From NCBI GenBank assembly GCA_018333865.1, contig JAGXSE010000065.1:48794-112793 (forward strand): 64,000 nt of DNA. The letters run 5' to 3'. Position numbers and translations under genes: made by a program. Source of the stretch: Syntrophomonadaceae bacterium (lineage in GTDB: Bacteria; Bacillota; PH28-bin88). Shown piece by piece: positions 16,525-64,000 of this stretch; within the stretch, counting starts at the first letter, position 1, and each line of letters opens with the position of its first letter. The notes under the pieces are model-generated. The model saw only the letters and a program-made list of their open reading frames with translations. It made no database searches and was not told the origin of the DNA.

Positions 16525-16543
16525 CTGTTAGGGGGAGTAACGC

Positions 16544-17695: not shown

Positions 17696-17815
17696 GCTGC
17701 AGCTTTTTTACGGACAAGCTTTAACAGGAACACTTTCAACATTGCTGCATAGTATAAAGATGTGTTTGTGCAGGATAAATAGTAATATATGCCGCTCAAA
17801 AAAGGGGTGGGTTAA

Positions 17816-19246: not shown

Positions 19247-20141
19247 GCATCAAGTACTGCAGGAATTAGCCCAACTAGAGGGTGAGATCATGGTCAATGA
19301 ACCAATGTTCCGCCATACGACTTGGCGCATCGGTGGCTCTGCAGATATCTTGGTGATGCCAAAATCCATACCGGCTTTGAAAAACTGTCTGGAACTGGCA
19401 GAAAGGCATCAATTAGCGGTTACTGTTATCGGCAATGGATCAAATGTATTGGTTAGAGACGGTGGCATCAGGGGAATGGTGATCAAGACCACCCTTTTGA
19501 CTGCTGTAGAGTTGGATGGGACCATTATTAAGGCGGAGGGGGGCTTTCCTCTCCCTGCTCTGGTACAGGTATCCGCAAAGGCAGGTCTTCAAGGACTGGA
19601 ATTTGCAGCTGGAATCCCGGGAACTCTGGGTGGTGCCCTGGCCATGAATGCCGGGGCCGGGCAAGGCAGTTTCAATGATATTTTAAGGGAAGTCACCGTG
19701 ATAAAAGAAAATGGTACCATTGAAACCCTTTCACCGCACCAGATTTCCTTTGGTTACCGAAAAAGCAGCCTGAAAAAACCTGGTCAAATTATAGTCGCTG
19801 CTGTTTTGGCCCTTGCACCTGGATCCCCGGCAGAGATCCAGCAAAAGATAAAAGAATTGTTGCAAAGCCGCCGGGCGAAACAGCCCTTAAATTGGCCAAA
19901 CGCTGGCAGTGTCTTTGCTAATCCTGCAGGTTATGCTGCCGGGTATCTGATTGAACAGACCGGAGCAAAGGGTTTGACCAGGGGCAGAGCTCAAGTATCT
20001 GAGCTTCATGCCAATTTTATCATTAATCTTGGCGGAGCAACTGCCGGGGATGTGGAGGGGCTGATTGAAGAAGTTCGCCGCAGAGTAATGGATAAATATG
20101 GCATAGAACTCTGGCTGGAAATACAGATCTTTGGTGAATAA
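19230..20141 (+). CDS. murB: UDP-N-acetylenolpyruvoylglucosamine reductase
   Basis: 303 aa FAD-binding MurB pattern (GNGSNVL etc.). Confidence 0.9.
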   Translation: MARLVRHQVLQELAQLEGEIMVNEPMFRHTTWRIGGSADILVMPKSIPALKNCLELAERHQLAVTVIGNGSNVLVRDGGIRGMVIKTTLLTAVELDGTIIKAEGGFPLPALVQVSAKAGLQGLEFAAGIPGTLGGALAMNAGAGQGSFNDILREVTVIKENGTIETLSPHQISFGYRKSSLKKPGQIIVAAVLALAPGSPAEIQQKIKELLQSRRAKQPLNWPNAGSVFANPAGYAAGYLIEQTGAKGLTRGRAQVSELHANFIINLGGATAGDVEGLIEEVRRRVMDKYGIELWLEIQIFGE

Positions 20142-20170
20142 CATGGAATGGAACCGGGGGGAGTGACAAC

Positions 20171-21430
20171 ATGGGTAAATTCATCATCTTGGGAGGATCC
20201 CGCCTGGAAGGAAAAGTGCGAATCAGTGGCTCAAAGAATGCAGTTTTGCCCATTATGGCAGCCAGTTTGCTGAGCGGGCAAGCTAGTGTCCTGTACCAGG
20301 TGCCTGAACTGGCAGATGTCCTGACTATGAAAAAGGTTTTGGAGAGCCTTGGAGCTAAAGCGAATTTTGCAGGGAACAGGGCCGAGATTGAGACCAGAGG
20401 CGTTGCCCGCATGGAGGTGCCGGAGCTTTTGACAAGGCAAATGCGAGCCTCCAACCTGGTCATGGGGCCTTTGTTGGGGCGTTTTGGATACTGCAAAGTG
20501 AGCTATCCGGGCGGATGTGAAATCGGCTCCAGGCCAATGGACCTGCATCTAAAAGGATTTAAAGCGATGGGGGCTTTGGTTCAGGAAAAATTTGGTTATG
20601 TGGAGGCTGAATGCCGTCAATTAAAAGGGGCCGACATCCACCTGGATTTTCCCAGCGTAGGGGCTACCGAAAACCTAATGATGGCAGCAGTTCTTGCTTT
20701 GGGCCAAACAGTCATCCGCAATGCGGCCAAAGAGCCTGAGATTGTTGATCTGCAAAACTATTTGAATCGCATGGGCGCGAAGGTTAAAGGGGCGGGACTT
20801 GATGTGATCAGGGTTCAGGGGGTATCGACCTTGTATCCTGTTGAACATAACATTATCCCAGATCGAATAGAGGCCGGAACATTTATGGTTGCGGCAGCTA
20901 TCACAAATGGAGATGTAACTTTAGAAAACGTGATCCCGGAGCACTTAGAGCCGGTCACGGCAAAACTTCGGGAAGCGGGCGTGGAAATAACCGTTCTTGG
21001 GGATGCCTTGCGCATAACTTGTCCTGCAAGGATAAGTGCAGTTGATGTGAAAACAATGCCTTATCCAGGCTTCCCTACCGATATGCAGCCCCAGATGGTG
21101 GCTCTCCTGACAAAGTCTCAGGGGACCAGCATTGTATCCGAAAGTATTTTTGAAAACCGTTTTAAATATGTAGACGAATTAAGGCGAATGGGTGCCCAGA
21201 TTAAACTGGAAGGGCGGGTAGCCATTGTCAGTGGAGTGCCACGGCTCACCGGGGCAATAGTGGAGACTGCTGATTTAAGGGCCGGAGCAGCTCTTGTCCT
21301 TGCGGCGTTGGCAGCCCATGAGGCAACAATTGTTGAAAATACCAATCATATTGAGCGGGGCTACGAGAAGCTGGACAATAAACTCAATTATCTCGGCGCC
21401 CGGGTAATGAAGGTTAACGGCGGGCAGTAG
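20171..21430 (+). CDS. murA: UDP-N-acetylglucosamine 1-carboxyvinyltransferase
   Basis: 419 aa EPSP-synthase-fold protein with MurA N-terminus and a catalytic Cys in the GGCEIGSRP loop. Confidence 0.9.
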   Translation: MGKFIILGGSRLEGKVRISGSKNAVLPIMAASLLSGQASVLYQVPELADVLTMKKVLESLGAKANFAGNRAEIETRGVARMEVPELLTRQMRASNLVMGPLLGRFGYCKVSYPGGCEIGSRPMDLHLKGFKAMGALVQEKFGYVEAECRQLKGADIHLDFPSVGATENLMMAAVLALGQTVIRNAAKEPEIVDLQNYLNRMGAKVKGAGLDVIRVQGVSTLYPVEHNIIPDRIEAGTFMVAAAITNGDVTLENVIPEHLEPVTAKLREAGVEITVLGDALRITCPARISAVDVKTMPYPGFPTDMQPQMVALLTKSQGTSIVSESIFENRFKYVDELRRMGAQIKLEGRVAIVSGVPRLTGAIVETADLRAGAALVLAALAAHEATIVENTNHIERGYEKLDNKLNYLGARVMKVNGGQ

Positions 21431-50292: not shown

Positions 50293-51453
50293 CTAAAAAA
50301 TACTGGTCTCCTTAGGTTTATCGTTTCCACTACAGGAAAATCTGGCTGGGGACAGGCTCTTGATTTCCATGGAACGTACCTTTCTATCAACCAGCAGTTC
50401 AGCCAGTAGCAAGCCAATAGCTGGCGCATGCATGAAACCATGGCCGGTAAAGCCGTTAGCACAATAAAAACCTTCTGCCTCCTGCGCCTCCCCCAGGACA
50501 GGCTGGAAGTCGGGGGTAACTGACCTGAGCCCGGCATAGGCCTTGCTGATCTTTGCTTCGTTCAGGAGAGGTATTCGCTTAATTGCGGCTTGGGCGACCG
50601 TTTCCAAGCCGCTCCAATCGACAGAAATATCCATGCCCGGGGCTGTTGTTTTATCAGTACCCCCCATTAAAAGCTGCCCGTTTAGTTCTTGATGCAGGTA
50701 AAATCCGCTGTCCATATCAACTGTTAGGGGTATATTCCTGGGCAAGCTAGGGATGGGCTCGGCTACAAAAACCTGCCGCCGGTAGGGTGTTACCGGCAGG
50801 TTTACCCCTGCTAAACCGGCCACACTGGCGGCATAGGGGCCACCGGCATTGATGATCCTTGTTGTCGAGACAGTTTGTTTGCTGGTAATCACACGCCGGA
50901 CCTTCCCTTTTTCAACGCCAATGCCAATAACTGGTTCTTCAAAAAAATATTTGACACCAAGCCTTTTCCCGCTATTCAAATAGCCTTTAACCATTTCCGA
51001 TGGATCTGCAGATCCGTCAATAGAGCAAAAACTGCCCCCCTGAAGGTCAGTGGTGATCAGGTATGGAAACCGCCGGGCGATTTCATCCCTGTATAAAAGT
51101 TCAGAGGGTACGCCCAATTCTTGCTGTAGCAGAATATCCTTGGCAAACAATTCCATTTGCGCAGGGCAAGCAGTAACAAATAGGTAGCCGTTTTGCCGGT
51201 AGTTGATGTGATAGCCCATTTCTTCTGCAAAGGATTGAAAAAATGGGACACTCAGGAGAGAAAGCTGAATGTTTTCCCTGGCGGAAAATTGGTAGCGGAT
51301 GCCGCCGGTGCAGGCCGCCGTGGAACCGGTTCCTTCAAACTTTTCTTTTTCCAAAACAATGACCTTTAAGCCAGGGTCTTTTTTCTTCAAGTTATAGGCA
51401 ACGCTTAACCCAATGATTCCGGCTCCAATCACGACTACATCGGCCATATGCAC
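50293..51453 (-). CDS. FAD-dependent oxidoreductase (DAO family)
   Basis: N-terminal VVVIGAGIIGLSVAY dinucleotide fold, about 386 aa. Confidence 0.8.
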   Translation of the reverse strand: MHMADVVVIGAGIIGLSVAYNLKKKDPGLKVIVLEKEKFEGTGSTAACTGGIRYQFSARENIQLSLLSVPFFQSFAEEMGYHINYRQNGYLFVTACPAQMELFAKDILLQQELGVPSELLYRDEIARRFPYLITTDLQGGSFCSIDGSADPSEMVKGYLNSGKRLGVKYFFEEPVIGIGVEKGKVRRVITSKQTVSTTRIINAGGPYAASVAGLAGVNLPVTPYRRQVFVAEPIPSLPRNIPLTVDMDSGFYLHQELNGQLLMGGTDKTTAPGMDISVDWSGLETVAQAAIKRIPLLNEAKISKAYAGLRSVTPDFQPVLGEAQEAEGFYCANGFTGHGFMHAPAIGLLLAELLVDRKVRSMEIKSLSPARFSCSGNDKPKETSIF

Positions 51454-51650
51454 TGTGCGTCACTCCTAATCGACATGATATCCTCATCTTATACTTTACA
51501 ATGCTTTCCCGTCAACCCAATGTAATTCAGCATGATTAGATCAAACTCGCCTGGATCAGTCCGGACATTGGCTTGAGGCATGAAAGGATTTCGATTGCCG
51601 GATGCAGAAGTAACTATTAACGTCATTATTCTGGAGGGTGCAGATAAAAT

Positions 51651-52694
51651 ATGCAGTTTGATAAACCAGTACTGGCCATAGACGTGGGCGGAGGGACCCA
51701 GGATATTTTTTTATTTCAACCCGGTCAATCCGTGGAAAACTCTGTGCAGATGGTCCTGCCTTCCCAGACCCAGGTAATTGCCCGTCAGATCAGGGAAATC
51801 ACCGACAGACGAGAAGACCTGTTCCTGACGGGGAGTTTAATGGGCGGGGGGGCTTCCAGTTCAGCCATCCGAAAACACCTTGCCGCCGGGTGCCGGGTTT
51901 ATGCTAACCCTGAGGCCGCCAAAACCCTGGACGATGACCTGCATAAGGTGCGGGCAACGGGAGTTATAATTACTGAAAGCCAACCCAGAAACACTGTCTC
52001 AGTTACAATGGGCGATATCAACCTGCCGGCCCTGGCAGCGGCTCTAAAGACTTTTGCCGTTGAACTGCCGGAACAGATTGTGGTTGCTGTGCAGGACCAT
52101 GGGGAAAGCCCGGGCTTCAGCAACAGGTTATTCCGCTTCCAGCACTGGCAGCGTTTTGTAGCTGAAGGTGGTGATATCAGACGGCTTTTATACAGTGAGG
52201 TTCCCTCATACCTGACCAGGATGCTGGCAGTTAAAGCTTTGCTACCCCAGGCTTATCTGGCCGATACGGGTACCGCTGCCATTTGGGGGGCATTGGAAGA
52301 CCCGCAGGTGGCCGTAAAACAGGCTGAAGGGGTAATCCTGCTCAATGTGGGAAATCAGCATACGGTGGGAGTGCTGCTGAAAAAATGGCAAGTCTATGGG
52401 CTGTTTGAACACCATACCGGCTTGCTGAATTCTGGAAAGTTGATTGACTATATCGAAAGGCTCCGCATGGGAGCATTAACCCATGCCGAAGTATACCAGG
52501 ATGGCGGTCATGGCTGTTATATCAGCCCAGACTATAATCCGGCGTCAGGGTTTAATCTGGTAGCCGTCACCGGGCCAAGACGAGCCATGACATGGGGAGC
52601 TGGGTATTATTTGGCTGTGCCCCACGGCAACATGATGCTGGCCGGCGCCTTCGGACTGGTAGCAGCATTGGCTGCCCGACAAATAGAGCAATAA
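51651..52694 (+). CDS. ASKHA-fold protein (possibly DUF1786-like)
   Basis: N-terminal LAIDVGGGTQDIF phosphate-1-like motif; no Fe-S Cys motifs; assignment from memory. Confidence 0.4.
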   Translation: MQFDKPVLAIDVGGGTQDIFLFQPGQSVENSVQMVLPSQTQVIARQIREITDRREDLFLTGSLMGGGASSSAIRKHLAAGCRVYANPEAAKTLDDDLHKVRATGVIITESQPRNTVSVTMGDINLPALAAALKTFAVELPEQIVVAVQDHGESPGFSNRLFRFQHWQRFVAEGGDIRRLLYSEVPSYLTRMLAVKALLPQAYLADTGTAAIWGALEDPQVAVKQAEGVILLNVGNQHTVGVLLKKWQVYGLFEHHTGLLNSGKLIDYIERLRMGALTHAEVYQDGGHGCYISPDYNPASGFNLVAVTGPRRAMTWGAGYYLAVPHGNMMLAGAFGLVAALAARQIEQ

Positions 52695-53415
52695 AGCATA
52701 CAAATCGCAATATTTTATACTTGTCTGGGAAAAACATAAATAATAAGCTTAAAATTAAGAAGGATACAAGGAGGTTTTCACTATGTCTGTATTGGAGGAT
52801 ATCAAACAAGCAGTGATTGACGGGAACGCTCCCAAGGTGAAAGCTATAACTGAAAGAGCTCTGGTCGAAGGAATCAGTATTAACGACATCATCAACGAAG
52901 GCTTAATCGGTGGGATGAGCTATATCGGCGTCAGGTTTAAAAACAACGAAGTCTATGTGCCCGAGGTCTTGATTGCCGCCAGGGCGATGCATGCGGGCAT
53001 GGGTGTGATGAAACCTTTGTTAACGGGTGAAAATTTTCAATCTAAAGGCACCTTTGTAATCGGCACCGTAAAAGGTGATCTCCACGACATCGGCAAGAAC
53101 CTGGTGATCATGATGATGGAAGGAGCTGGCTTTAAGGTTGTTGACCTGGGGATAGATGTGCCAACGGAAAAGTTCATTAAAGCCATTGAGGAGCATAAAC
53201 CCCAGATTGTCGGGCTTTCAGCCTTGTTGACTACAACCATGGTCCAGATGAAAAACACCATTCAAGAACTTAAGCCTTACCGCAATGAAATCAAAGTGAT
53301 GATCGGCGGAGCGCCGCTAACCCAAAAGTTTGCCGATGAAATCGGCGCCGATGCCTATGCTCCGGATGCGGCTACTGCTGTCGAACTGGCGACAGAACTT
53401 CTGGCTTCATAGCTG
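52695..53415 (+). repeat. direct repeat copy 1 (corrinoid-protein gene plus upstream element)
   Basis: About 95% nucleotide identity by eye to 56480-57193 across the coding region; upstream shares ACAAATCGCAATAT...ACTTGTCT. Confidence 0.8.
52783..53412 (+). CDS. cobalamin-binding corrinoid protein
   Basis: 209 aa; B12-binding motif GDLHDIGKNLV (DxHxxG) and Rossmann-like domain; AAGGAGG RBS. Confidence 0.85.
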   Translation: MSVLEDIKQAVIDGNAPKVKAITERALVEGISINDIINEGLIGGMSYIGVRFKNNEVYVPEVLIAARAMHAGMGVMKPLLTGENFQSKGTFVIGTVKGDLHDIGKNLVIMMMEGAGFKVVDLGIDVPTEKFIKAIEEHKPQIVGLSALLTTTMVQMKNTIQELKPYRNEIKVMIGGAPLTQKFADEIGADAYAPDAATAVELATELLAS

Positions 53416-53432
53416 AAAGGAGGCCGACCTCA

Positions 53433-54227
53433 GTGCTGGTTGTCGGCGAATTAATCAATTCTACCCGTAAAGCCATTGCCCAGGCCCTGGAGCAAAGAGA
53501 CCAGGCTTACCTGCAGGATTTGGCCCGGCGCCAGGTAGAGGCTGGCGCTTTGATCATCGATGTCAATGCGGCAATCGGTGGTAATGAAGCTGATCGCATG
53601 AAGTGGCTGGTAGAAATCGTGCAGGAAGCGGTGGGGGTGCCTCTTTGTATTGACAGTCCAAGTGCTGCTGCTATTGAGGCCGGTCTGGCCGTCTGCCGGG
53701 AAAAAGCCATGCTGAACTCCATTACGGCAGAAGACTACCGTTGGAACGAACTCTTGCCAGTTGTGCAAAAGTACAAGCCCCGCGTAATCGCCCTTTGTAT
53801 GGGTGACGGACCAATGCCTGAAACTACCCTTGACCGCCTGCGGGAAGCAGAAAAACTGGTGCCAGGCCTGGTGGCTGCGGGCATCCCGATTGAGGACATT
53901 TACCTTGATCCATTAATTAAACCCCTGGGGGTTAATACTAAACATGCTATGGAAGCCTTAGAAAGCACCCGTGCCTTACGCCTGGAATATCCCGGTGTAC
54001 ATATTATCTGTGGTTTATCCAATGTTTCTTTTGGCCTGCCAGAGCGTCGCCTGTTAAACAGAGCCTTTATGGTGATGGCAATTTCCTCTGGCATGGATGC
54101 CCTTATTATGGATCCCCTGGATCACCCTACCATGTCCTTCTTAGCGGCTGCCAGGGCTTTAGTTGGGCAGGACGAATACTGCCTGGAATACATTGCCGGT
54201 GTCAGGTCAGGAAGGGTTAAGGCTTAG
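53433..54227 (+). CDS. pterin-binding methyltransferase (methylcorrinoid:tetrahydrofolate type, MtrH/AcsE-like)
   Basis: 264 aa DHPS-like barrel; GELINS start, IDVNAA and HIICGLSNVSFGLP segments. Confidence 0.7.
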   Translation: MLVVGELINSTRKAIAQALEQRDQAYLQDLARRQVEAGALIIDVNAAIGGNEADRMKWLVEIVQEAVGVPLCIDSPSAAAIEAGLAVCREKAMLNSITAEDYRWNELLPVVQKYKPRVIALCMGDGPMPETTLDRLREAEKLVPGLVAAGIPIEDIYLDPLIKPLGVNTKHAMEALESTRALRLEYPGVHIICGLSNVSFGLPERRLLNRAFMVMAISSGMDALIMDPLDHPTMSFLAAARALVGQDEYCLEYIAGVRSGRVKA

Positions 54228-54259
54228 AGAAAGGTAATAAAAAATGGGGGTGGCTAAAA

Positions 54260-55405
54260 ATGGGAGCACTAACCCCGCGGGAACGGGTCCGGCGGGCACT
54301 AAGTTTCCAGGAGCCTGACCGGGTTCCCACCGATGTGGGAACCAGTGCAGCGACAGGGATCACCCTGGGGGCTTATGAGCAATTAAAGCAGTATCTAAAG
54401 ATGCCTGATGCTACTGGGAGCGTAAATCACTTGATGTTTCAGACGGTAACGGCAGATCACCGGGTGCTGGAAAGGCTGGGAGTGGATTTCCGTCCGGTAT
54501 ACTATCGCCCGCCTGCCGAAAACAAGGGTATTTGGGGGCCTGATGACACTTTTGTCACAGAATGGGGGTTTACTGTCAAACGGCCTGAAGGCGGCCTGTA
54601 TTATGACATTATTAAAAGCCCATTGCTAGAGGCAGAAATAGAAGACCTGGACAGGTATCCCTGGCCGGATCCCCATGACCCAGGCCGGATCGCCGGAGTG
54701 GCTAAAGAGGCCAAGGAACTCTACGAGCAGACAGATTATGCAATATTTGGCCCGGGCATGGAAGGCGGATTTTTCGAGCTTTCCTGGTATTTAAGAGGAA
54801 TAGAGCGCTTTTTTATGGACCTAATCGAAAACAAAGAGTTTGTCCACGCCCTGTTCCGGAAGCTTTTGGATTATCGCAAGGCTTTATTGGGACGTTATCT
54901 TGATGCAGCAGGAAAATACCTGGATGTAGTGTATTACGGGGACGACATCGCCATGCAGACCGGCCCTTTGATGTCTTTAGGGCTCTACCGGGAGCTGGTC
55001 AAGCCCTATCAAAAAGAGCTGTTCAGTTTTATTAAAGAAAAGACCGAGGCCAAGCTCTTCTACCACACCTGTGGCAGCGTGGTAAAGTACTTGGACGATC
55101 TGATCGAGATCGGGGTTGATATCATTAACCCCGTTCAGGTCAGCGCCAAGGATATGGATACTGCCAGGTTAAAGCAAAGCTATGGCCATCGGCTGGTATT
55201 CTGGGGCGGGATCGATACCCAGCATGTCTTGCCTTTTGGTACAGAAGAAGAAGTAGAGGAAGAGGTAAAAAGGCGGATTAAAGACCTGGCTCCGGGCGGC
55301 GGCTATGTCTTGGGGCCTGTGCATAACGTCCAGCCTGACGTGCCTCCCCAGAACCTGGTGCGAGTTTTCCAGGCCGCCAGCCAGTACGGTGTTTATCATA
55401 GATAG
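54260..55405 (+). CDS. URO-D/MtaA-family methyltransferase (substrate:corrinoid type), copy 1
   Basis: 381 aa with PDRVP near N-terminus and HTCGS, GGGYVLGPVHNV segments. Confidence 0.8.
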   Translation: MGALTPRERVRRALSFQEPDRVPTDVGTSAATGITLGAYEQLKQYLKMPDATGSVNHLMFQTVTADHRVLERLGVDFRPVYYRPPAENKGIWGPDDTFVTEWGFTVKRPEGGLYYDIIKSPLLEAEIEDLDRYPWPDPHDPGRIAGVAKEAKELYEQTDYAIFGPGMEGGFFELSWYLRGIERFFMDLIENKEFVHALFRKLLDYRKALLGRYLDAAGKYLDVVYYGDDIAMQTGPLMSLGLYRELVKPYQKELFSFIKEKTEAKLFYHTCGSVVKYLDDLIEIGVDIINPVQVSAKDMDTARLKQSYGHRLVFWGGIDTQHVLPFGTEEEVEEEVKRRIKDLAPGGGYVLGPVHNVQPDVPPQNLVRVFQAASQYGVYHR

Positions 55406-55659
55406 CTACCCGCTCTAATCCCCCCACTAGTTGGGACATTCCTTTAAAGCGGCGGGATAAGAGCGGTTACGCTACACAAAGTTGGGGACATTCCTGTCCC
55501 AAAAAAATGGCCTGAGCTTCAGCAGGTGTGTCCCCGTTCCTTTTATCTGGCTCTAAGCTTCAGTGGGGGTAGTAATCCCCCCTCTGAAGCCAAGACCCAG
55601 TTGAACCAATCAGATTATAGCCCCTTCGATAGCTTAAAATAACCCAAGTATAAAACAGG

Positions 55660-55695
55660 CTGGAAGTGCCTTCGCCTAGGCGAAGGCACTTCCAG
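55660..55695 (+). repeat. 36-nt perfect inverted repeat (hairpin)
   Basis: CTGGAAGTGCCTTCGCC-TA-GGCGAAGGCACTTCCAG; no T-run on the plus side, T-rich on the minus side. Confidence 0.7.
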
Positions 55696-55723
55696 CAATT
55701 CTCATGGCCTCTAGCAACGCAGA

Positions 55724-55751
55724 TTGCATTTTTCGCCATTTCCTTTATAAT
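55724..55751 (+). promoter_or_regulatory. sigma-A-type promoter for the small two-gene cassette
   Basis: TTGCAT at 55724-55729, 16-nt spacer, TATAAT at 55746-55751. Confidence 0.45.
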
Positions 55752-55809
55752 CTAAGATAGCAGTGGTATGATGTCAAGCAACTAAATAGTATACCAAGGG
55801 GGTGTTTTT

Positions 55810-56067
55810 ATGGTTCCGTCACCCAAAGTTAAGAAACATCTCAGTGAGATCAAAAGAGAGCAGTGGACAGAGGCGGAATTGAGAGAGCTGCTCAAAGCCA
55901 TTGCCCGGGATTTCCAATTGCAAATCGAGATATCCGGCGAATCTGCAGATGATGATTTTTGGGCACTCACCCCGGATGAGGATCAGCATTTCAATGACCT
56001 GCTGGTCAAATCAGCGAGAGACACCAAAAATAAGTGTTTTACCGAATACAGTAGGCCGCAGCTCTAA
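55810..56067 (+). CDS. small acidic protein (antitoxin-like)
   Basis: 85 aa; acidic C-terminal half; ATG with AAGGGGG RBS; 2 nt from the next ORF. Confidence 0.3.
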   Translation: MVPSPKVKKHLSEIKREQWTEAELRELLKAIARDFQLQIEISGESADDDFWALTPDEDQHFNDLLVKSARDTKNKCFTEYSRPQL

Positions 56068-56069
56068 TC

Positions 56070-56396
56070 ATGCGCAGAAAGATCAGATTTCGCAGAACTC
56101 ATACCTATAATGAGGAATTGTTAAACATCCGGGAATTCAACCGGGAATTGGCCGAACAGATTGAAGAAAAGCGAGAGTATTTTGAGCGTTGCCTGACCAA
56201 TCCCCCTTACCTTCCGTCACCAGGCCTCAACATGGAGACACTGGAGGGTAAAATTACCCGGCCCGATTGGCTGAGAGGGTACCCTAAACTATACAGCTTC
56301 AGGGTGAATAAATATGCCCGAGTAATTTTCTGGTGGGCTGAAGACGGAACATGCGAGTATTTATTTCCTTTTGCCAAGCATTACAGAAGAAGTTGA
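56070..56396 (+). CDS. small basic protein with RelE/YoeB-like C-terminal pattern (toxin-like)
   Basis: 108 aa; C-terminus YSFRVNKYARVIFWWAEDGTCEYLFPFAKHYRR fits the RelE/ParE/YoeB core pattern. Confidence 0.3.
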   Translation: MRRKIRFRRTHTYNEELLNIREFNRELAEQIEEKREYFERCLTNPPYLPSPGLNMETLEGKITRPDWLRGYPKLYSFRVNKYARVIFWWAEDGTCEYLFPFAKHYRRS

Positions 56397-56423
56397 AGCT
56401 TCCTGCGAGGGAGGCTTTTTTTT
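56397..56423 (+). terminator. rho-independent terminator
   Basis: Stem AGCTTCC/GGAGGCT (one G-U) followed by TTTTTTTT. Confidence 0.6.
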
Positions 56424-56479
56424 CAGTTCTTCAAAATGCTGGCTAACATTAAACACCAAAAAAGCAAAATAACAAACAA

Positions 56480-57193
56480 ATCGCAATATATTGAACTTGT
56501 CTTATGGAAGGCAAAGGCAGTAGTATTAGATTAAGGAAAGGACTACAAAGGAGGTATTTGATACCAGTGTTGGAAGATATCAAGCAAGCAGTGATTGACG
56601 GGAACGCTCCCAAGATGAAAGCTATTACTGAAAGAGCACTGGCCGAAGGAATCAGTATTAATGACATCATCAACGAAGGCTTAATCGGCGGGATGAGCTA
56701 TATCGGTGTCAAGTTTAAAAACAACGAAGTATATGTGCCCGAGGTCTTGATTGCCGCCAGGGCAATGCATGCAGGCATGGGTGTGATTAAGCCCTTGTTA
56801 ACTGGTGAAAATTTTCAATCTAAAGGCACCTTCGTAATCGGCACCGTAAAAGGTGATCTCCACGACATCGGCAAGAACCTGGTGATCATGATGATGGAAG
56901 GCGCCGGCTTTAAGGTAGTTGACCTGGGGATAGATGTACCAACGGAAAAGTTTATTCAAGCGATCGAGGAGCACAAACCCCAAATTGTCGGGCTTTCAGC
57001 CTTGTTGACCACAACCATGGTCCAGATGAAAAACACCATTCAAGAACTGAAGCCTTACCGCAATGAAATCAAGGTGATGATCGGCGGAGCGCCGGTTACC
57101 CAAAAGTTTGCCGATGAAATCGGAGCCGATGCCTATGCCCCCGATGCGGCCACAGCTGTAGAACTGGCGACAGATCTACTGGCTTCATAGCTA
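56480..57193 (+). repeat. direct repeat copy 2 (corrinoid-protein gene plus upstream element)
   Basis: Near-identical to 52695-53415; see copy 1. Confidence 0.8.
56567..57190 (+). CDS. cobalamin-binding corrinoid protein, copy 2
   Basis: GTG 56567 aligns with copy 1 N-terminus (VLEDIKQAVIDG); same GDLHDIGKNLV motif; AAGGAGG RBS. Confidence 0.85.
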   Translation: MLEDIKQAVIDGNAPKMKAITERALAEGISINDIINEGLIGGMSYIGVKFKNNEVYVPEVLIAARAMHAGMGVIKPLLTGENFQSKGTFVIGTVKGDLHDIGKNLVIMMMEGAGFKVVDLGIDVPTEKFIQAIEEHKPQIVGLSALLTTTMVQMKNTIQELKPYRNEIKVMIGGAPVTQKFADEIGADAYAPDAATAVELATDLLAS

Positions 57194-57337
57194 TTGTTGA
57201 CATTAATCTGACTGCGCCATCCATCGTTAAGCACCAAAATTTCTTGTGTTGCCAATGTCTGATTATAAAGGATTTCTTAAAAGAGAAATTTGTGCGCCAG
57301 GATCTAACTTGTGATCGTGATAGTGTTTAAGTTGAAA

Positions 57338-57360
57338 GAAGTATTTGCACAGAATACTTC
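57338..57360 (+). promoter_or_regulatory. 8-bp-stem hairpin between corrinoid gene 2 and the methyltransferase
   Basis: GAAGTATT-tgcacag-AATACTTC; not followed by a T-run. Confidence 0.3.
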
Positions 57361-57415
57361 TATGCAATAAAAAGTTTGAATATTATGAGATTTTAAGAAC
57401 GGAGGCTTGCTAGGC

Positions 57416-58513
57416 ATGACCGAAATGAAACCTAGGCAACGTGTCTTAACAGCATTAAACTTAGGAGTTCCAGATAGGGTTCCATTTATGGAAAGTGCTA
57501 TAGATGAGATTTTACAGGTTCAATTAATGGGCAGAGATAATTTTACCCCAGATGAGCTATGTGAAAAATTGGGATTGGATGCTTTTGGTTATGACTATCC
57601 TGCTACCGGTGGAGAGCTAGGAACAGGGGAAGTTGCAAGGGGTATAACCACCCATGATGTATATTACTTTCCTAAAAGAATAACTTTTGATTTCCTGCCT
57701 CCGTGGATCGCTGATAAAGGAGAGGGGGTGGCGGGGCGTAGTTTTATAAAAAAAGGATTGCTAACCGATAATGATTCCATTGCACTATTTGATAAATTTC
57801 TTCCCGATCCCCATCACCTAGCCCGATACGACATTGTTTCTGATTGGATATCAAAATACAAAAAAGACTATGCGGTTTTTGCCCGCATTCGGCTGGGTGC
57901 AGCTCCCACGATTAATAGCATGGGCTTTGAGGAGTTGTGTTACAAAATTTTCGACAACCCCAATTTAGTTAAGGAAGTACACAGGAGGTTTTCTGAATGG
58001 ACGGCTCAGGTTATTCAGCACCTAAATAAAATGGACTTTGATTTTATTTGGGCGGCTGACGATATAGCCGATAATAAAGGTCCTTGGTTTTCACCAGCGA
58101 TTTTTCAAGAATTCTTTTTACCGTATATGAAGATTGCAGCCGATGAAATTAAGAAACCATGGGTCTTTCACAGTGACGGTAATTTGTTCCCTATTATGGA
58201 TGATTTGTTATCCTTGGGGATGCAAGGCATCCACCCATTGCAGCCTGCTGCAATGGACATTGTAAAAATGAAGGAAGATTACGGCCACAGGGTATGCCTT
58301 GTTGGTAATATCGATCTTGATTATACATTGACCCGGGGAACACCTGAAGAAGTGGAAGAGGAGGTTAAACAGCGGATTGAAACGATTGGCCAGAAAGGAG
58401 GTTATATTGTTAGCAGTGCTAATAGTCTAGCTTCATATGTAAAACCGGAGAATGCCTTAGCTTTGGGGCAAGCAGTCAAAAAGTACGGAAAGTATCCCTT
58501 AATTATTGATTGA
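57416..58513 (+). CDS. URO-D/MtaA-family methyltransferase, copy 2 (divergent paralog)
   Basis: PDRVP N-terminal motif, HSDGN and GGYIVSSANS segments; distant from copy 1. Confidence 0.8.
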   Translation: MTEMKPRQRVLTALNLGVPDRVPFMESAIDEILQVQLMGRDNFTPDELCEKLGLDAFGYDYPATGGELGTGEVARGITTHDVYYFPKRITFDFLPPWIADKGEGVAGRSFIKKGLLTDNDSIALFDKFLPDPHHLARYDIVSDWISKYKKDYAVFARIRLGAAPTINSMGFEELCYKIFDNPNLVKEVHRRFSEWTAQVIQHLNKMDFDFIWAADDIADNKGPWFSPAIFQEFFLPYMKIAADEIKKPWVFHSDGNLFPIMDDLLSLGMQGIHPLQPAAMDIVKMKEDYGHRVCLVGNIDLDYTLTRGTPEEVEEEVKQRIETIGQKGGYIVSSANSLASYVKPENALALGQAVKKYGKYPLIID

Positions 58514-58614
58514 TTAAAACGAGGGGGGGGAGATTTTATATAAGTGTTCGGTGTAGTAACTTTTGTGTTGTGGAATAACAGCTAAAACATGATATTTGAA
58601 AGGGGGAGGGTTAG

Positions 58615-59712
58615 ATGAGTAAACCTGAAAAAAGAAAATATATGTTAGCTTTATTGTTAATGGTTTTGTTAACAGTAGTGTTTTTTAGTGCAGGCTGTGC
58701 ACCCAGAGATCAGAAAGCTGCGGAAGGACCACCAGCACCAGCTCAAAAAGAGAAACATACCTGGGAAATGCAGTCTTGGACTTGGCCTGGCTTGGAACCT
58801 AAGCATAGTATAGTCCATGATTTTGCCAAAAGAGTGTACGAGGCATCTGGTGGTCGCCTTGAAATCATCATGCATCCACGGGAAGCGGTTGTGCCGGGTT
58901 GGGAGGCTACTGAAGCAGTAGGAAGGGGCATATTAGACATGTCCTTTGAGTGGCCAGGAGTTATGGCAGGGAGATGGGGGGATGTAGGCTTTAATCTTTT
59001 TTCGCCTCCTCCCATGTCCCTCCGAGAAGGTTGGCAGGTAACTTCCTGGTTTTACGACTGGGGTGTGCTAGATATAATGCGGGAAGCATTCGCTAAACAC
59101 AATGTTTATGTTGCTGGTATAACCTTTTGGCAACAAGAGAGCTTACATTCCAAAAAGCCAATTCGAGGAATCGCAGATCTACGAGGAGTAAAAGTCAGAA
59201 CCCCTCCAGGCATAACTTCGGACTTTTTTAGAGCGTTGGGAGCCTCTCCAGTTGTTTTGCCTCCGCCTGAAATTTATTCATCATTGGATAGAGGGGTAAT
59301 TGACGCTGCTGAGTGGGTAACTCCAGTCGGAAACTTTGCCTCAGGTTTCCAAGAAGTGACTGAATACGTGCTTTGGCCATCACCACATCAAGAATTTGCT
59401 ACTGTATATGTAGCAGTAAACATGGATTCCTGGAATGCATTATCTCCTGAACTCAAAGCTATATTTAAGGGAGCTTTAGCGGAGTTTTCCTGGAGGCATG
59501 CATACGAACCTTATTTAGCGGATTATCAAACAATTAAGAAATATATTGCAGCAGGAAATGAACATATTCAGTGGTCTGATGCAGAATTAAAAAAGGCACG
59601 AATAATTGCCAGAGATTTATGGCGTTCTTATGGTAAACAAAGCCCACTTGCAGCAAAATTGGTAGAAAAGCTTGAGTCATATCTGAAAACGATCGGAGAA
59701 ATGCCTGAATAG
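58615..59712 (+). CDS. TRAP transporter substrate-binding lipoprotein
   Basis: Signal peptide with lipobox FSAGC; about 340-aa mature domain; directly upstream of DctQ/DctM-type permease genes. Confidence 0.65.
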   Translation: MSKPEKRKYMLALLLMVLLTVVFFSAGCAPRDQKAAEGPPAPAQKEKHTWEMQSWTWPGLEPKHSIVHDFAKRVYEASGGRLEIIMHPREAVVPGWEATEAVGRGILDMSFEWPGVMAGRWGDVGFNLFSPPPMSLREGWQVTSWFYDWGVLDIMREAFAKHNVYVAGITFWQQESLHSKKPIRGIADLRGVKVRTPPGITSDFFRALGASPVVLPPPEIYSSLDRGVIDAAEWVTPVGNFASGFQEVTEYVLWPSPHQEFATVYVAVNMDSWNALSPELKAIFKGALAEFSWRHAYEPYLADYQTIKKYIAAGNEHIQWSDAELKKARIIARDLWRSYGKQSPLAAKLVEKLESYLKTIGEMPE

Positions 59713-59747
59713 CAACTTGTTTTTAGCTCAAATCAAGTAGAACTATT

Positions 59748-59788
59748 GGAGGAGGGAAGGGATGCCTTGTCATTTTTATCCCTCCTCC
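59748..59788 (+). other. intercistronic stem-loop
   Basis: 10-bp perfect stem GGAGGAGGGA/TCCCTCCTCC with a 21-nt loop. Confidence 0.5.
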
Positions 59789-59885
59789 AAACTCTAAGTT
59801 TAGCGGTTGAAAGGAAGTCCTGCTAAAAATATTTTCAAAGCACCCGATGGGCATCTTTGAGTAAAACAGAGGAGGGATGAATAAC

Positions 59886-60383
59886 ATGGGGTATTTTTTT
59901 CGCCTCGTAGATATGACAAACGAATTGGTCGGCAAATTGATGAGCATCATCGTTGTTGCAACAGTGTTGATTATTACTTTTGGAGTGATCATGCGGTATA
60001 TTTTTAAGTCACCTATTCCGGTAGTTTTTGAGTTAACCATATATCCTCTTGCAGCAGTATATGCACTTTCGACTGGTTACGCACTTCTCCACAACGCCCA
60101 TGTAAATGTCGACGCAATAATCCACAGATTATCGCCTAGACACAGACTTATACTGGCCTTTGCGACCTTTCCGGTTTTTTTGGTTTTTTGTGCTGCGCTG
60201 ATTTGGAGCGGATTCCCGTGGGCATGGCATTCGTTTTTAATAAATGAAACAAGCGGGTCGTCGTGGAGCCTAAAATTATACCCATATAAGTTTGCACTGC
60301 CAATTGGAGCAGTATTGTTGCTCCTTCAAGGTACGGTTAACTTGATCCGTCAGATGGATCTAACTAAGAAAGCTTCAAAATAA
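59886..60383 (+). CDS. TRAP transporter small permease (DctQ-like)
   Basis: About 165 aa, four TM helices; ATG 59886 chosen for GGAGGG spacing. Confidence 0.65.
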   Translation: MGYFFRLVDMTNELVGKLMSIIVVATVLIITFGVIMRYIFKSPIPVVFELTIYPLAAVYALSTGYALLHNAHVNVDAIIHRLSPRHRLILAFATFPVFLVFCAALIWSGFPWAWHSFLINETSGSSWSLKLYPYKFALPIGAVLLLLQGTVNLIRQMDLTKKASK

Positions 60384-60457
60384 TGGCAGTGTCGAGTATG
60401 GTGTATGTTTGGGATCCGGGTAAGGTTGCAGTGTTAGAAAGGTAGGCATCGGATGAA

Positions 60458-61777
60458 ATGAATATTGAATTGATTACATTAGTTGTTATTATATCTTTCC
60501 TAGGTCTATTAATGGCGGGAGTGCCCATGGCCTTTACTATGGGTGGGAGTGCGATAGTTTTAACCCTTATTTTGTGGGGGCCAGACTTTATTCCCCTGAT
60601 TCTTATGCGCATTTTTGAACAGATGGCAAGTTATACTTTTGTGGCAGCACCAATGTTTATTTTTATGGCTTCGGTCTTAGAGCGAATTGGTGTCGCAGAG
60701 GAATTGTTTGAAGGGATATACTCCTGGATCGGCTCTATCCGCGGAGGTTTAGCGATAACTGTTGTGATCGCATGTACTATTCTAGCTGCTATGGTGGGCA
60801 TTATTGGGGCGGGTATTGTATTAATGGGGTTAATTGCCCTACCTCAGATGCTGAAACGTGGGTACGATAAAAACCTAGCAACGGGAACCATCATGGCCTC
60901 AGGTTGTCTAGGAATTCTAATTCCCCCCAGTATATTATTCGTCGTCTATTCTATGGTTGCTGGCGTATCTGTAGGGAAGCTGTTTGCAGGAGCTATAATC
61001 CCTGGGCTCATGCTTTCTTTCGCGTACGTATTATATATTACTATCAGATGTTATTTAAATCCAAAAATAGGTCCTGCTGCCAATGAGAAAAACTTGGAAC
61101 CTATTTCTATAAAAAAGAAGTTAATGCTTTTGAAAAATCTTATTGCCCCCATGCTTTTAATAGTAACTGTTATGGGCAGCATTTTTTTTGGGATTGCAAC
61201 CCCTACAGAAGCAGCCGGCGTAGGAAGTTTTTGCGCGCTTTTAATCGCGGTTGCCCGGGGTAAGCTTAGTTTTCTTATGCTGAAAGAAACTGCGATGCAA
61301 ACAGTCAAGGTATCAGCGATGATCATGTGGATAATTTTTGGTGCAACAGCCCTAATTTCTGTGTATACCCGCGCCGGTGGAGCTAGATTTATGGAAGAGG
61401 TTATCCATGCATTGCCTCTAGGACCATGGGAACTTTTTATTGCGGTACAAATGCTATTTTTTATTATGGGATTTTTTCTCGATTGGATTGGCATTCTTAT
61501 GTTAACAGGCCCACTTTTAATACCGATAATGGCTGAGATAGGATTTGATCCTCTATGGTTTGGTATCGTGTTTGCGCTTAATATGCAAATGGCTTTTTTA
61601 ACACCGCCATTTGGCCCAGCGATGTTTTATATGAAAGGTGTAGTGCCTGCCGAGATTAAAATTACAGATTTGTATCGGGCTGTCATTCCTTTTATTTGTC
61701 TGCAGTTGCTAGTTCTGATTATCGTCATTTTATATCCATCACTTGCCCTATGGCTGCCAGCGAAGTTATTCCCTTAA
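60458..61777 (+). CDS. TRAP transporter large permease (DctM family)
   Basis: 439 aa, about 12 TM helices, typical DctM pattern. Confidence 0.9.
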   Translation: MNIELITLVVIISFLGLLMAGVPMAFTMGGSAIVLTLILWGPDFIPLILMRIFEQMASYTFVAAPMFIFMASVLERIGVAEELFEGIYSWIGSIRGGLAITVVIACTILAAMVGIIGAGIVLMGLIALPQMLKRGYDKNLATGTIMASGCLGILIPPSILFVVYSMVAGVSVGKLFAGAIIPGLMLSFAYVLYITIRCYLNPKIGPAANEKNLEPISIKKKLMLLKNLIAPMLLIVTVMGSIFFGIATPTEAAGVGSFCALLIAVARGKLSFLMLKETAMQTVKVSAMIMWIIFGATALISVYTRAGGARFMEEVIHALPLGPWELFIAVQMLFFIMGFFLDWIGILMLTGPLLIPIMAEIGFDPLWFGIVFALNMQMAFLTPPFGPAMFYMKGVVPAEIKITDLYRAVIPFICLQLLVLIIVILYPSLALWLPAKLFP

Positions 61778-61942
61778 TTCTAGTTATGGCCCGAAGTGGA
61801 ACCAAGATCGTGGTATGTGAACATAAATTTTTTTACAGCAGAATCATATATTTTAATTAACAAGGCTAGCAAATATTATTGTTAGAATTTATGCTGATAC
61901 TTAGTAAAATATAGTTAACAGGAGCCAGGAGGGGTTATCGCG

Positions 61943-62899
61943 GTGAAATTGCATGTGGTGATTGCAGATTTTCGTTGGGAAGATTTATCCTGCGAACAAA
62001 ACATCTTTTCCCCTAACGGTATCGAGATAGCTGGTTTCCAATGTGACACAGAAGAAGAAGTGCTATCTGCCTGTAAGGAGGCGGACGGAATTATTACTAC
62101 TGCTAGCCCAATTTCGGCGCGAGTCATCCAGGGAATGAAAAAATGCAAGGTTATTTCCAGATACGGGATCGGTTATGATAATGTGGATATTAAGGCTGCT
62201 TCGGCCCAAGGTATTATTGTGTGCAATGTCCCAGATTATTGCATTGACGAAGTAGCCGATCATGCCTTCACTTTAATAATGGCCTTGGTAAGAAAACTAA
62301 ACCCATATGCTCAAAGTGTTAGGGATGGTTTATGGGATTACCCCTTGTATAAACCAATCTTTAGGTTGAAAGGCAAGGTCTTAGGCCTTGTTGGTTTTGG
62401 AAATATTGCTCGTAACCTTGCGCGAAAAGCTCAGTGTTTCGGCCTGGAAATTATTGCTTTTGATCCCCATGTCTCCGGTGCGGAAATGGAACAATTAGGA
62501 GTTTCCCCTGTGAGTTTAGATCAACTATGTCGTGTTTCTGATATTATTTCTGTACATGTACCATTGGCAGATTCAACCAGGGGCATCATTGGTCAGCAAC
62601 AGCTCGAAAAAATGAAGCCCACTGCGATCTTGATCAATACCGCCCGCGGGCCGGTGGTGAATGAAGATGCCTTAATAAGTGCTTTGGAAGCAAAAACAAT
62701 TGCAGGTGCAGGTTTGGATGTAGTCACGAAAGAACCTATTGATATTAATAATCCCTTGCTAATGATGCCGAATGTTATTGTGACCCCTCATATGAGTTGG
62801 TATTCCAAAGAGGCAGAAGAAGAACTACGAATAAAAGCCGCAAATAATGTTCTTTCCGTTTTGAAAGGTGAAAACCCTAAGTACAGGGTCAACAGCTGA
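61943..62899 (+). CDS. D-isomer-specific 2-hydroxyacid dehydrogenase (NAD-binding)
   Basis: GLVGFGNIARNLARKA NAD-binding motif and catalytic Arg/Glu/His arrangement; GTG start with GGAGGGG RBS. Confidence 0.9.
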   Translation: MKLHVVIADFRWEDLSCEQNIFSPNGIEIAGFQCDTEEEVLSACKEADGIITTASPISARVIQGMKKCKVISRYGIGYDNVDIKAASAQGIIVCNVPDYCIDEVADHAFTLIMALVRKLNPYAQSVRDGLWDYPLYKPIFRLKGKVLGLVGFGNIARNLARKAQCFGLEIIAFDPHVSGAEMEQLGVSPVSLDQLCRVSDIISVHVPLADSTRGIIGQQQLEKMKPTAILINTARGPVVNEDALISALEAKTIAGAGLDVVTKEPIDINNPLLMMPNVIVTPHMSWYSKEAEEELRIKAANNVLSVLKGENPKYRVNS

Positions 62900-63541: not shown

Positions 63542-63624
63542 TTCCAATGAATTTATAGACCCTTTAATTCTGCAATCGCAATAGCAATAGGAAAAACTAA
63601 TTGACAAAGAGAGGTGCTTGGTTA

Positions 63625-64000
63625 GTGAGACCAGATAAGCCTGATTTTGAAAGAATAAAAACAGCTCTATATTGCAAAGAGCCTGACAGGGTACCATTGG
63701 CCGAGTTAATTATAGATCCTAAAGTAAGAGCTGGATTTATGGGCAAACCGGTTGACGACATCAAGACGAATGTGGAATTTTGGGCCGCAGCTGGATATGA
63801 TTATATTATACTATCGAAAGGATTGCTTGAACCTGGGCATGTGTTGGAAGGTACAGCAGTCCAAAAAACAAGAAGTGAAACAAGCCTTTATGGAAATGGA
63901 GTTGAAGAGAGAGATTGGGCTAATTTGCATGAAGGTGTCATAAAAACCGAAGCAGATTTTGAAAAATTTAATTGGCCTGATCCTGATTCATTGGATTACT
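63625..64000 (+). CDS. URO-D/MtaA-family methyltransferase, copy 3 (5' partial, runs off window)
   Basis: GTG 63625 with AGAGAGGTG RBS; N-terminus VRPDKPDFERIKTALYCKEPDRVP parallels the other URO-D paralogs. Confidence 0.6.
   Translation, partial: MRPDKPDFERIKTALYCKEPDRVPLAELIIDPKVRAGFMGKPVDDIKTNVEFWAAAGYDYIILSKGLLEPGHVLEGTAVQKTRSETSLYGNGVEERDWANLHEGVIKTEADFEKFNWPDPDSLDY

Follow-up and report, generated by a model that had tools for sequence, protein, structure and literature searches.

A putative three-component corrinoid methyl-transfer operon with a URO-D-fold protein in a variable island of a Syntrophomonadaceae bacterium

What do the three closely spaced genes at positions 52783-55405 encode, and would the methyl-transfer pathway suggested by their products stand alone or serve neighbouring genes as well? 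The genes lie on the + strand of a 64,000-nucleotide (nt) stretch of DNA of a Syntrophomonadaceae bacterium (GenBank assembly GCA_018333865.1, contig JAGXSE010000065.1, positions 48,794 to 112,793 of the forward strand; hereafter the window, to which coordinates refer unless stated otherwise). A preliminary description, made from the nucleotide letters without database searches, had read them as a tightly packed operon for a complete chain carrying a methyl group from a substrate via a corrinoid to tetrahydrofolate. Our analysis indicates that the operon is likely a three-component corrinoid-dependent methyl-transfer system, of the kind used by anaerobes for O-demethylation and related methylotrophy. 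Its parts are a corrinoid protein (CP1), a pterin-binding methyltransferase (methyltransferase II, MT II) and a URO-D-fold protein (UROD1), a putative substrate:corrinoid methyltransferase (methyltransferase I, MT I):

52783-53412, + strand: CP1, corrinoid methyl-carrier protein of 209 amino acids (aa), ATG start, with B12-binding_2 and B12-binding domains
53433-54227, + strand: MT II of the MeTr/MtgA family, 264 aa, GTG start, assigned from model NF005719, PDB matches and pterin residues
54260-55405, + strand: UROD1, URO-D-fold, MtaA-like protein and putative MT I, 381 aa, ATG start, assigned from Pfam URO-D, a family profile and a fold model

The three genes and the metal site of UROD1

The intergenic gaps are 20 nt between CP1 and MT II (53413-53432) and 32 nt between MT II and UROD1 (54228-54259). 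Each gene has its own ribosome-binding site: AAGGAGG, 8 nt 5' of the CP1 ATG; GAAAGGAGG, 8 nt 5' of the MT II GTG; and GGGGGTGG, 7 nt 5' of the UROD1 ATG. A consensus scan, whose counts here equal the shuffle expectation, found no promoter-like or terminator-like site on the + strand within 52783-55405. From this layout, 52783-55405 is predicted to form a single, co-transcribed unit. The N-terminus of UROD1 translated from 54260 aligns with homologues from residue 1; the long start is therefore right, and one database record has a shorter product. In GenBank the four genes from the preceding DUF1786 gene on (MBS3977696-99) are named 'DUF1786 domain-containing protein', 'corrinoid protein', 'methyltetrahydrofolate cobalamin methyltransferase' and 'uroporphyrinogen decarboxylase', the last of which is probably wrong for UROD1.

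CP1 has the cap and Rossmann domains of a corrinoid protein, with Pfam matches to B12-binding_2 (PF02607, 1.2e-20) and B12-binding (PF02310, 5.6e-31). It also carries the motifs DxHxxG (D99-H101-G104), SxL (146-148; S146, L148) and GG (175-176), and is read as a His-on corrinoid protein. Its match to the Moorella cobalamin-binding protein 1y80 reaches 2.8e-65. The best NCBIfam models were MtgC, the pyl_corrinoid family and MtbC. Since every score fell under its cut-off, CP1 is regarded as a generic methyltransferase corrinoid protein, and identity with the glycine-betaine protein MtgC was rejected (NF047996, 247.4 bits against a cut-off of 370; NF047995, 196.9 against 310).

MT II matches Pfam Pterin_bind (1.1e-27) and scores 331.9 bits against NF005719 (methyltetrahydrofolate:corrinoid methyltransferase; cut-off, 259). 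The closest solved proteins are the MeTr enzymes of Carboxydothermus and Moorella (2yci, 189 bits; 2e7f, 173 bits) and MtgA of Desulfitobacterium hafniense (4o0q, 181 bits). We take the last entry to be the methyltransferase MtgA despite its title, 'Dihydropteroate synthase DHPS'. MT II carries D74, N95, D159 and N197 at the pterin-binding positions of MeTr, and it has the features of a pterin-binding TIM-barrel methyltransferase of the MeTr/MtgA/MetH-Fol type. Two other assignments were tried and rejected: dihydropteroate synthase (FolP; TIGR01496, 30.2 bits against a cut-off of 162.6) and the methyltransferase AcsE of carbon monoxide dehydrogenase/acetyl-CoA synthase (CODH/ACS; NF040758, 125.9 bits against 370). 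No CODH/ACS gene was found near MT II among the window open reading frames (ORFs) scanned and in the Pfam table of the island described below. By these scores and residues the second gene is classed as MT II, a methyl-corrinoid:tetrahydrofolate methyltransferase, and not as folP.

The tightly packed + strand trio with ribosome-binding sites is thus as the preliminary description had it. That description had named independent promoters between the genes, and a genuine folP at 53433-54227, as findings that would count against its reading; the consensus scan returned no such promoter, and the protein fails the dihydropteroate synthase model and holds the MeTr pterin residues. The comparison with known methyltransferases that it had proposed places MeTr and MtgA closest, with the AcsE model below its cut-off.

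UROD1 matches Pfam URO-D (4e-29). When a profile of its family (24 homologues) was compared with the PDB, MtaA (4ay7) scored 4.4e-11, the best true UroD 4.8e-5 and CdmB 1.2e-3. The AlphaFold (AF2) model of UROD1 has a pLDDT of 93.6, and Foldseek retrieved MtaA 4ay7 as the best structure, followed by UroD structures and then MetE. In the profile alignment, H269 and C271 (YHTCG) align with the HxC motif of MtaA, and H355 (VHNVQ) aligns with its third-ligand Cys. The triad His269-Cys271-His355 is invariant across 121 sequences and is the predicted zinc site. Within the UroD superfamily, S-methyltransferases carry His-Cys-Cys, and O-methyltransferases replace Cys by carboxylates or non-coordinating residues (PMC10418091). 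As aligned, the His-Cys-His triad of UROD1 fits neither the S-type nor the O-type pattern, and with this unusual site the substrate heteroatom may be O, S or N.

Two identities were rejected for UROD1. The first is HemE: no hemE equivalog model is among its five NCBIfam matches, and the family profile gives MtaA 4.4e-11 against 4.8e-5 for the best UroD. The second is a methylcobamide:CoM methyltransferase of the MtaA/CmuA family (SCMT): TIGR01463 gave 74.6 bits against 235.4, and the triad is not His-Cys-Cys. The URO-D fold and the adjacency to CP1 and MT II are seen directly, and MtaA, the characterised protein closest to it, works on the acceptor side; the MT I role assigned to UROD1 is accordingly a putative one.

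One MT II in a variable island and the direction of methyl flow

The operon is module 1 of a variable island of about 16 kb between the DUF1786 gene and pyrR. The island begins after DUF1786 (51651-52694) with CP1-MT II-UROD1, a 321-nt structured spacer, two small ORFs and a terminator-like site (56395-56418). It continues with CP2-UROD2-DctP-DctQ-DctM-2-hydroxyacid dehydrogenase-150-aa ORF-UROD3 (UROD3 starting at 63625). Past UROD3 follow a B12-binding/PocR histidine kinase, an AraC-type response regulator, DUF1638 and then pyrR; genes beyond 64000 were read from the JGI contig L091 (its positions 16210-20675), which is 100% identical to the window (offset 47415). The further components are as follows:

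56567-57190, + strand: CP2, paralogue of CP1, with a likely GTG start at 56567 (the mechanical ORF begins at ATG 56504)
57416-58513, + strand: UROD2, second URO-D-fold methyltransferase and putative MT I of module 2 (Pfam URO-D; O-type site)
58615-59712, + strand: DctP of a TRAP transporter (Pfam DctP)
59877-60383, + strand: DctQ of the TRAP transporter (Pfam DctQ)
60458-61777, + strand: DctM of the TRAP transporter (Pfam DctM)
61943-62899, + strand: D-isomer-specific 2-hydroxyacid dehydrogenase (Pfam 2-Hacid_dh_C, 2e-60)
63625-64000, + strand: UROD3, 5' part, running off the window (355 aa in the source contig; His-Asp-Asn site by alignment)

CP2 has a ribosome-binding site, AAAGGAGG, 8 nt 5' of its GTG at 56567. 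Its nucleotide identity to CP1 is 92% and extends about 80 nt upstream, and CP2 appears from this to be a duplicate of CP1 that includes the upstream 80 nt or so. The two proteins differ at 7 of 207 residues, all conservative substitutions. With a dS of 0.30 and a dN/dS of 0.049, both copies are under strong purifying selection, and near-identity has been kept at the protein level.

In all, the island comprises three methyltransferases of the URO-D type, two corrinoid proteins, one MT II, a TRAP transporter and a 2-hydroxyacid dehydrogenase. A tblastn search found a single copy of MT II in the window and none in the remainder of the island, in agreement with the earlier statement that module 2 has no pterin-binding gene of its own. 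UROD2 is 27% identical to UROD1 and matches MtaA (2.4e-8) and CdmB (9.7e-8). Its triad His255-Asp257-Asn339 is invariant among 121 homologues, and the metal sites of UROD2 and UROD3, as aligned, match the O-demethylase-type pattern. DctP is closest to lactate/2-oxoacid binding proteins (2zzv, 8e-51). The TRAP transporter probably imports a carboxylate substrate of module 2, the likeness of DctP hinting, speculatively, at a small one, and the 2-hydroxyacid dehydrogenase may process the demethylated product. The G+C content is 42.2% in module 2 (56504-62899), 50.9% in the CP1-MT II-UROD1 operon and 47.9% in the first 43 kb of the window, which holds the dcw cell-division cluster, ileS and others; the lower value of module 2 would fit a UROD2-TRAP segment that was acquired separately.

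Three related genomes show different states of the interval between DUF1786 and pyrR:

Moorella naiadis (L085; DUF1786 protein 54% identical): nothing between DUF1786 and pyrR
L084 (about 82% nt identity): CP-MT II only, collinear with the window
L001, a sister genome (90-97% nt identity): MT II-UROD1-RHH/PIN pair-two small ORFs-CP-UROD2-DctP-kinase-regulator-DUF1638, with CP1 absent

In L001, one corrinoid protein and one MT II stand with two URO-D genes, and the 32-nt gap between MT II and UROD1, with its ribosome-binding site and no intervening signal, is kept. About 100 nt 5' of MT II in L001 correspond to the sequence that precedes CP1 in the window, and the break lies between the two AAGGAGG ribosome-binding sites, indicating that CP1 was deleted in L001 and not inserted in the window. 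From these states, CP-MT II would be the ancestral core at this site, to which URO-D genes and the transporter were added later, and the corrinoid protein would be interchangeable between modules. The idea of a hub built on a shared MT II is supported by the relatives, which have either the CP-MT II pair by itself or a single corrinoid protein to go with two URO-D genes. The suggestion that one MT II serves several branches is thus strengthened by the ratio of three URO-D proteins to two corrinoid proteins to one MT II, by the near-identity of CP1 and CP2, and by the relatives.

The claim of a complete chain fared less well. The corrinoid protein, MT II and the URO-D protein could each be identified; the word 'complete' is overstated, because no reductive activase of the RACE/RamA type was found in the window or the island.

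In the scheme that we think probable, Co(I)-CP1 receives a methyl group through UROD1, and MT II, which also serves CP2 and hence UROD2 and UROD3, hands it on to tetrahydrofolate; the activase is encoded elsewhere. The zinc site of UROD1 would activate the methylated substrate, whose methyl group would be passed to Co(I) on CP1, and MT II would then move it from CH3-Co(III)-CP1 to tetrahydrofolate. The single MT II would most likely take methyl groups from both CP1 and CP2 and hence serve all three URO-D enzymes. Co(II) would have to be reductively reactivated by the activase, possibly aided by the DUF1638 protein of the island. Genetic work has linked DUF1638, along with a RamA-like protein, to the reactivation of B12 (PMC5764234, PMC12478193).

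The wider UROD1 clade was considered next to this scheme. Among 8000 candidates scored, 6286 matched at E<=0.001, and members with 43-52% identity occur across Desulfobacteraceae, Chloroflexota, Methylomirabilota, Spirochaetota, Atribacterota, Armatimonadota, Bathyarchaeia and others. The genes are often multi-copy in one locus, scattered among catabolic and transport genes. The neighbourhood sample consisted of 79 listed genome loci, the source species not among them, and a corrinoid protein lay within 10 kb in 13 of the 79 (about 16%). Corrinoid proteins are the commonest immediate neighbour family (9 of 96 same-strand flanking genes from about 80 loci). The other neighbours are mixed and include TrkH, zinc alcohol dehydrogenases, sugar-binding proteins, xylose-isomerase-like barrels and 2-oxoacid dehydrogenase E2. 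Outside this species, the nearest homologue (72% identity) has a corrinoid protein gene 57 nt downstream, and in Desulfosarcina widdelii a UROD1 homologue stands among MttB-family genes. The corrinoid link of the clade is enriched, not universal. The bathyarchaeal 'MtgB' O-demethylase was considered as kin of the Bathyarchaeia homologues and set aside; its length is about 300 aa, and its authors state that it lacks homology with the known MT I enzymes.

The UROD2 family belongs squarely in B12 methyltransferase clusters. A Desulfosporosinus genome has the order Pterin_bind-DUF1638-URO-D-CP; Desulfitibacter alkalitolerans conserves the order URO-D-DctPQM, with a B12-binding kinase and an AraC-type regulator; and Thermanaeromonas has a PocR-AraC regulator, an MFS transporter, three URO-D genes and DUF1638. 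As a side observation, a small DUF6951 gene adjoins URO-D methyltransferase genes in D. widdelii (L081; UROD1 clade) and Thermanaeromonas toyohensis (L087; UROD2 clade), and DUF6951 may be an unrecognised accessory of URO-D methyltransferase systems.

Several points weigh against the scheme. None of the 79 listed loci has an MT II gene within 10 kb of the UROD1-clade gene and most have no corrinoid protein within that distance, and for this reason the corrinoid dependence of the clade is not proven. MtaA, the nearest characterised relative of UROD1, methylates a thiol from methyl-cobalamin, acting on the acceptor and not the donor side. The promoter and terminator scans are weak evidence for the operon, since they are consensus matches only and their counts in this region equal the shuffle expectation. 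Lastly, a reductive activase (RACE/RamA, DUF4445) was found neither among the scanned window ORFs nor in the island Pfam table; this absence is not disqualifying, because the activase of the Cdm system is likewise unlinked and encoded elsewhere in the genome (PMC13222342).

The acceptor-side activity of MtaA leads to the reading that the flow is reversed, which we judge unlikely: MT II would load CP1 from methyl-tetrahydrofolate and UROD1, acting like MtaA or MetE, would methylate a thiol such as homocysteine or sulfide in a split MetH-like system, for example a three-part methionine synthase, or else methyl groups harvested by UROD2 and UROD3 would find in UROD1 a second way out. MtaA, the best solved homologue, is a methylcobalamin:thiol methyltransferase whose zinc ligand positions are conserved in UROD1; the fold search retrieved MetE structures; UROD1 weakly matches the archaeal methionine-synthase model NF002119 (E 9.7e-4); and methionine synthases are known that consist of three parts, in which a corrinoid protein and a pterin module are joined by another methyltransferase (PMC5764234, PMC12478193). 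However, the third zinc ligand of UROD1 is His and not the Cys of the His-Cys-Cys S-methyltransferases (PMC10418091), and UROD1 matches neither PF02574 nor PF01717, the homocysteine S-methyltransferase and core-MetE modules, which are absent from the Pfam matches of every island gene; a split cobalamin-dependent methionine synthase was rejected on this account. The size of the clade, its multi-copy loci and its catabolic and transport neighbours also misfit a housekeeping methionine synthase, and L084 retains CP-MT II without UROD1.

That UROD1 is a corrinoid-independent passenger beside an ancestral CP-MT II, with CP1-MT II working only with methyltransferases encoded elsewhere, seems to us quite improbable. 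It would accord with the listed loci of the clade, most without a corrinoid protein in 10 kb and none with MT II, with their heterogeneous immediate neighbours, with CP-MT II standing alone at this position in L084, and with the character of the DUF1786-pyrR interval as a hot spot of gain and loss. Against it stand the arrangement conserved in L001, in which UROD1 follows MT II at 32 nt with a ribosome-binding site of its own and no signal in between, the rank of corrinoid proteins as the single most frequent neighbour of the clade, the corrinoid protein gene next to the closest homologue outside the species, and the cobalamin dependence of MtaA, the nearest characterised protein. Finally, the database names, by which 53433-54227 would be a dihydropteroate synthase and 54260-55405 hemE in folate and haem/B12 biosynthesis, can hardly be right: the GenBank label of the third protein, the Pfam families Pterin_bind and URO-D and the title of 4o0q favour them, but the model scores reject them (TIGR01496, 30 bits against 162.6; no hemE equivalog among the NCBIfam matches; UroD structures at 4.8e-5 against 4.4e-11 for MtaA with the family profile), as does the HxC...H triad aligned to the MtaA zinc site.

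Shared upstream element, spacer and flanking genes

A short element recurs upstream of the methyltransferase modules:

52702-52726, + strand: upstream element AAATCGCAATATTTTATACTTGTCT, 57 nt 5' of the CP1 start; candidate operator/promoter element of module 1
56478-56502, + strand: second copy AAATCGCAATATATTGAACTTGTCT, 5' of CP2 and downstream of the terminator-like site 56395-56418
63574-63583, + strand: third copy of the core 10-mer AATCGCAATA, 41 nt 5' of the UROD3 start

The 25-nt element AAATCGCAATATwTTrwACTTGTCT has copies in the window at 52702-52726 and 56478-56502 only (0 expected by chance), and no other part of the intergenic region is as well conserved in L001 and L084. Its core 10-mer occurs three times in 64 kb (52703, 56479 and 63574; 0.2 expected), always on the + strand, and each copy precedes the first gene of a methyltransferase module, namely CP1, CP2 or UROD3. 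The third site does not derive from the duplication of the corrinoid protein gene. The element is plausibly a shared operator/promoter and a candidate site for the AraC-type regulator of the island; it would thus define three co-regulated transcription units, with the CP1 operon beginning after DUF1786. No riboswitch or known RNA was found: the comparison with Rfam was negative both for the window at gathering thresholds and for 51300-58700 at E<=1.

Just 3' of UROD1, a 321-nt non-coding stretch (55400-55720) forms four strong hairpins, with a fold of -129.5 kcal/mol and a z-score of -8.2 versus shuffles. A perfect palindrome of 19+19 nt lies within this spacer at 55659-55696. Further copies of the spacer or palindrome were found neither in the window nor in the plasmid collection, nor, for the palindrome, in a metagenome scan, and Rfam gave no match. 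At the position of the spacer, L001 instead holds the RHH/PIN toxin-antitoxin pair. Between the modules lie two small ORFs (55810-56067, 85 aa; 56070-56396, 108 aa), kept in L001 and without a Pfam match; they have their own promoter-like site with an extended -10 (55744-55772) and the terminator-like site 56395-56418. By eye, the second has a RelE/ParE-like C-terminus, and the two may form a toxin-antitoxin pair.

DUF1786, a divergent FAD oxidoreductase (50293-51453) and an ArAE exporter are conserved even where URO-D genes are absent, and on this ground they are not counted as part of the system. DUF1786 (51651-52694) was considered as the missing activase and rejected; in M. naiadis it adjoins the pyr operon without B12 genes, and in a further genome it stands among nucleoside-metabolism genes. 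Its product has an ASKHA-type N-terminal motif, LAIDVGGGTQD, and is 50-60% conserved across Moorella, Calderihabitans, Chloroflexota and others. In this lineage the gene sits 5' of the pyr operon whether or not B12 genes are present. No solved homologue of the protein was found by sequence, and the literature searched held no mention of it.

Significance and relation to known systems

Corrinoid methyltransferase systems decide which methylated compounds anaerobes feed into C1 metabolism. The present locus adds no new principle to this picture; it offers a natural hub with intermediate stages in sister genomes, and the shared cis-element together with the B12/PocR two-component system provides a candidate regulator of the island. 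UROD1 is a tractable member of a huge clade labelled 'uroporphyrinogen decarboxylase' in databases, and its substrate, once found, would re-annotate thousands of genes. It is a tentative possibility that this phylum-spanning clade, with its invariant His-Cys-His site, is a new class of corrinoid-dependent methyltransferase for a donor without a known anaerobic demethylase, for instance an aliphatic methoxy acid, a methylated sugar, or a compound with a methyl-thio or N-methyl group. If so, the window, among the few places that hard-wire the clade to a corrinoid protein and a tetrahydrofolate methyltransferase, would be the best entry to the substrate.

The methanogen enzymes MtaA, MtbA and MtsA include the best profile and fold match of UROD1 (4ay7), with the HxC motif and the third-ligand position aligned. 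They differ in having Cys where UROD1 has His as third ligand, UROD1 reaches 74.6 of the 235.4 bits of TIGR01463, and, unlike these enzymes, UROD1 is bacterial and has a tetrahydrofolate methyltransferase as its partner. The glycine betaine system MtgABC of D. hafniense resembles the operon in that MtgC is the best model for CP1 and MtgA (4o0q) matches MT II at 181 bits; however, CP1 is below the MtgC cut-offs, and the MT I of the Mtg system belongs to the MttB superfamily and not to URO-D.

Two systems are similar in their sharing or grouping of components. The split methionine synthase with shared MtgC/MtgD modules in Phaeobacter and Ruegeria likewise uses one corrinoid protein and one pterin module for several branches (PMC5764234, PMC12478193), and DUF1638, which closes the island in the window, is genetically linked to it; its third component is instead a PF02574 homocysteine methyltransferase, and its hosts are aerobic Alphaproteobacteria. 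Type 1 mlp clusters also group several URO-D paralogues with a corrinoid protein in anaerobic Firmicutes, but they are without a tetrahydrofolate methyltransferase, have a Ram/RACE activase, and encode Mlps with His-Cys-Cys (PMC10418091). The island has MT II, no RACE and no His-Cys-Cys in its three URO-D proteins, and was set apart from these clusters by composition and metal ligands as published.

The closest likeness, judged by component lists, is to Mtv (MtvABC) of Moorella thermoacetica, OdmA/B/D and Vdm of Acetobacterium dehalogenans, and the D. hafniense O-demethylases, which have the same clustered corrinoid protein, pterin-binding MT II and URO-D-superfamily MT I and deliver the methyl group to tetrahydrofolate (PMC13222342, PMC10989822). 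UROD2 and UROD3 share with them the zinc-position substitutions described for O-methyltransferases (PMC10418091). UROD1 differs in its His-Cys-His site, the cluster differs in having no activating enzyme, and the UROD1 profile is nearer MtaA (4.4e-11) than CdmB (1.2e-3), the one solved bacterial relative of these enzymes. The chloromethane dehalogenase/methyltransferase CdmBCA of A. dehalogenans (PDB 9rui) likewise keeps a URO-D-fold MT I, a corrinoid protein and MT II together, with the activase elsewhere (PMC13222342). Its gene order differs from that of the window operon, and CdmB is zinc-free according to the same paper and has marginal similarity to UROD1 (1.2e-3) and weak similarity to UROD2 (9.7e-8).

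Clusters of MT I, corrinoid protein and MT II with the activase elsewhere have been described before (PMC13222342), as has a shared corrinoid and pterin module (PMC12478193). By these comparisons the architecture appears to be the O-demethylase-type arrangement of MT I, corrinoid protein and MT II known from Mtv, Odm/Vdm and Cdm, and fairly ordinary, with a putative MT I in UROD1 and an unlinked activase. What is mildly new is the His-Cys-His clade, together with a natural series in which a CP-MT II hub gains MT I genes.

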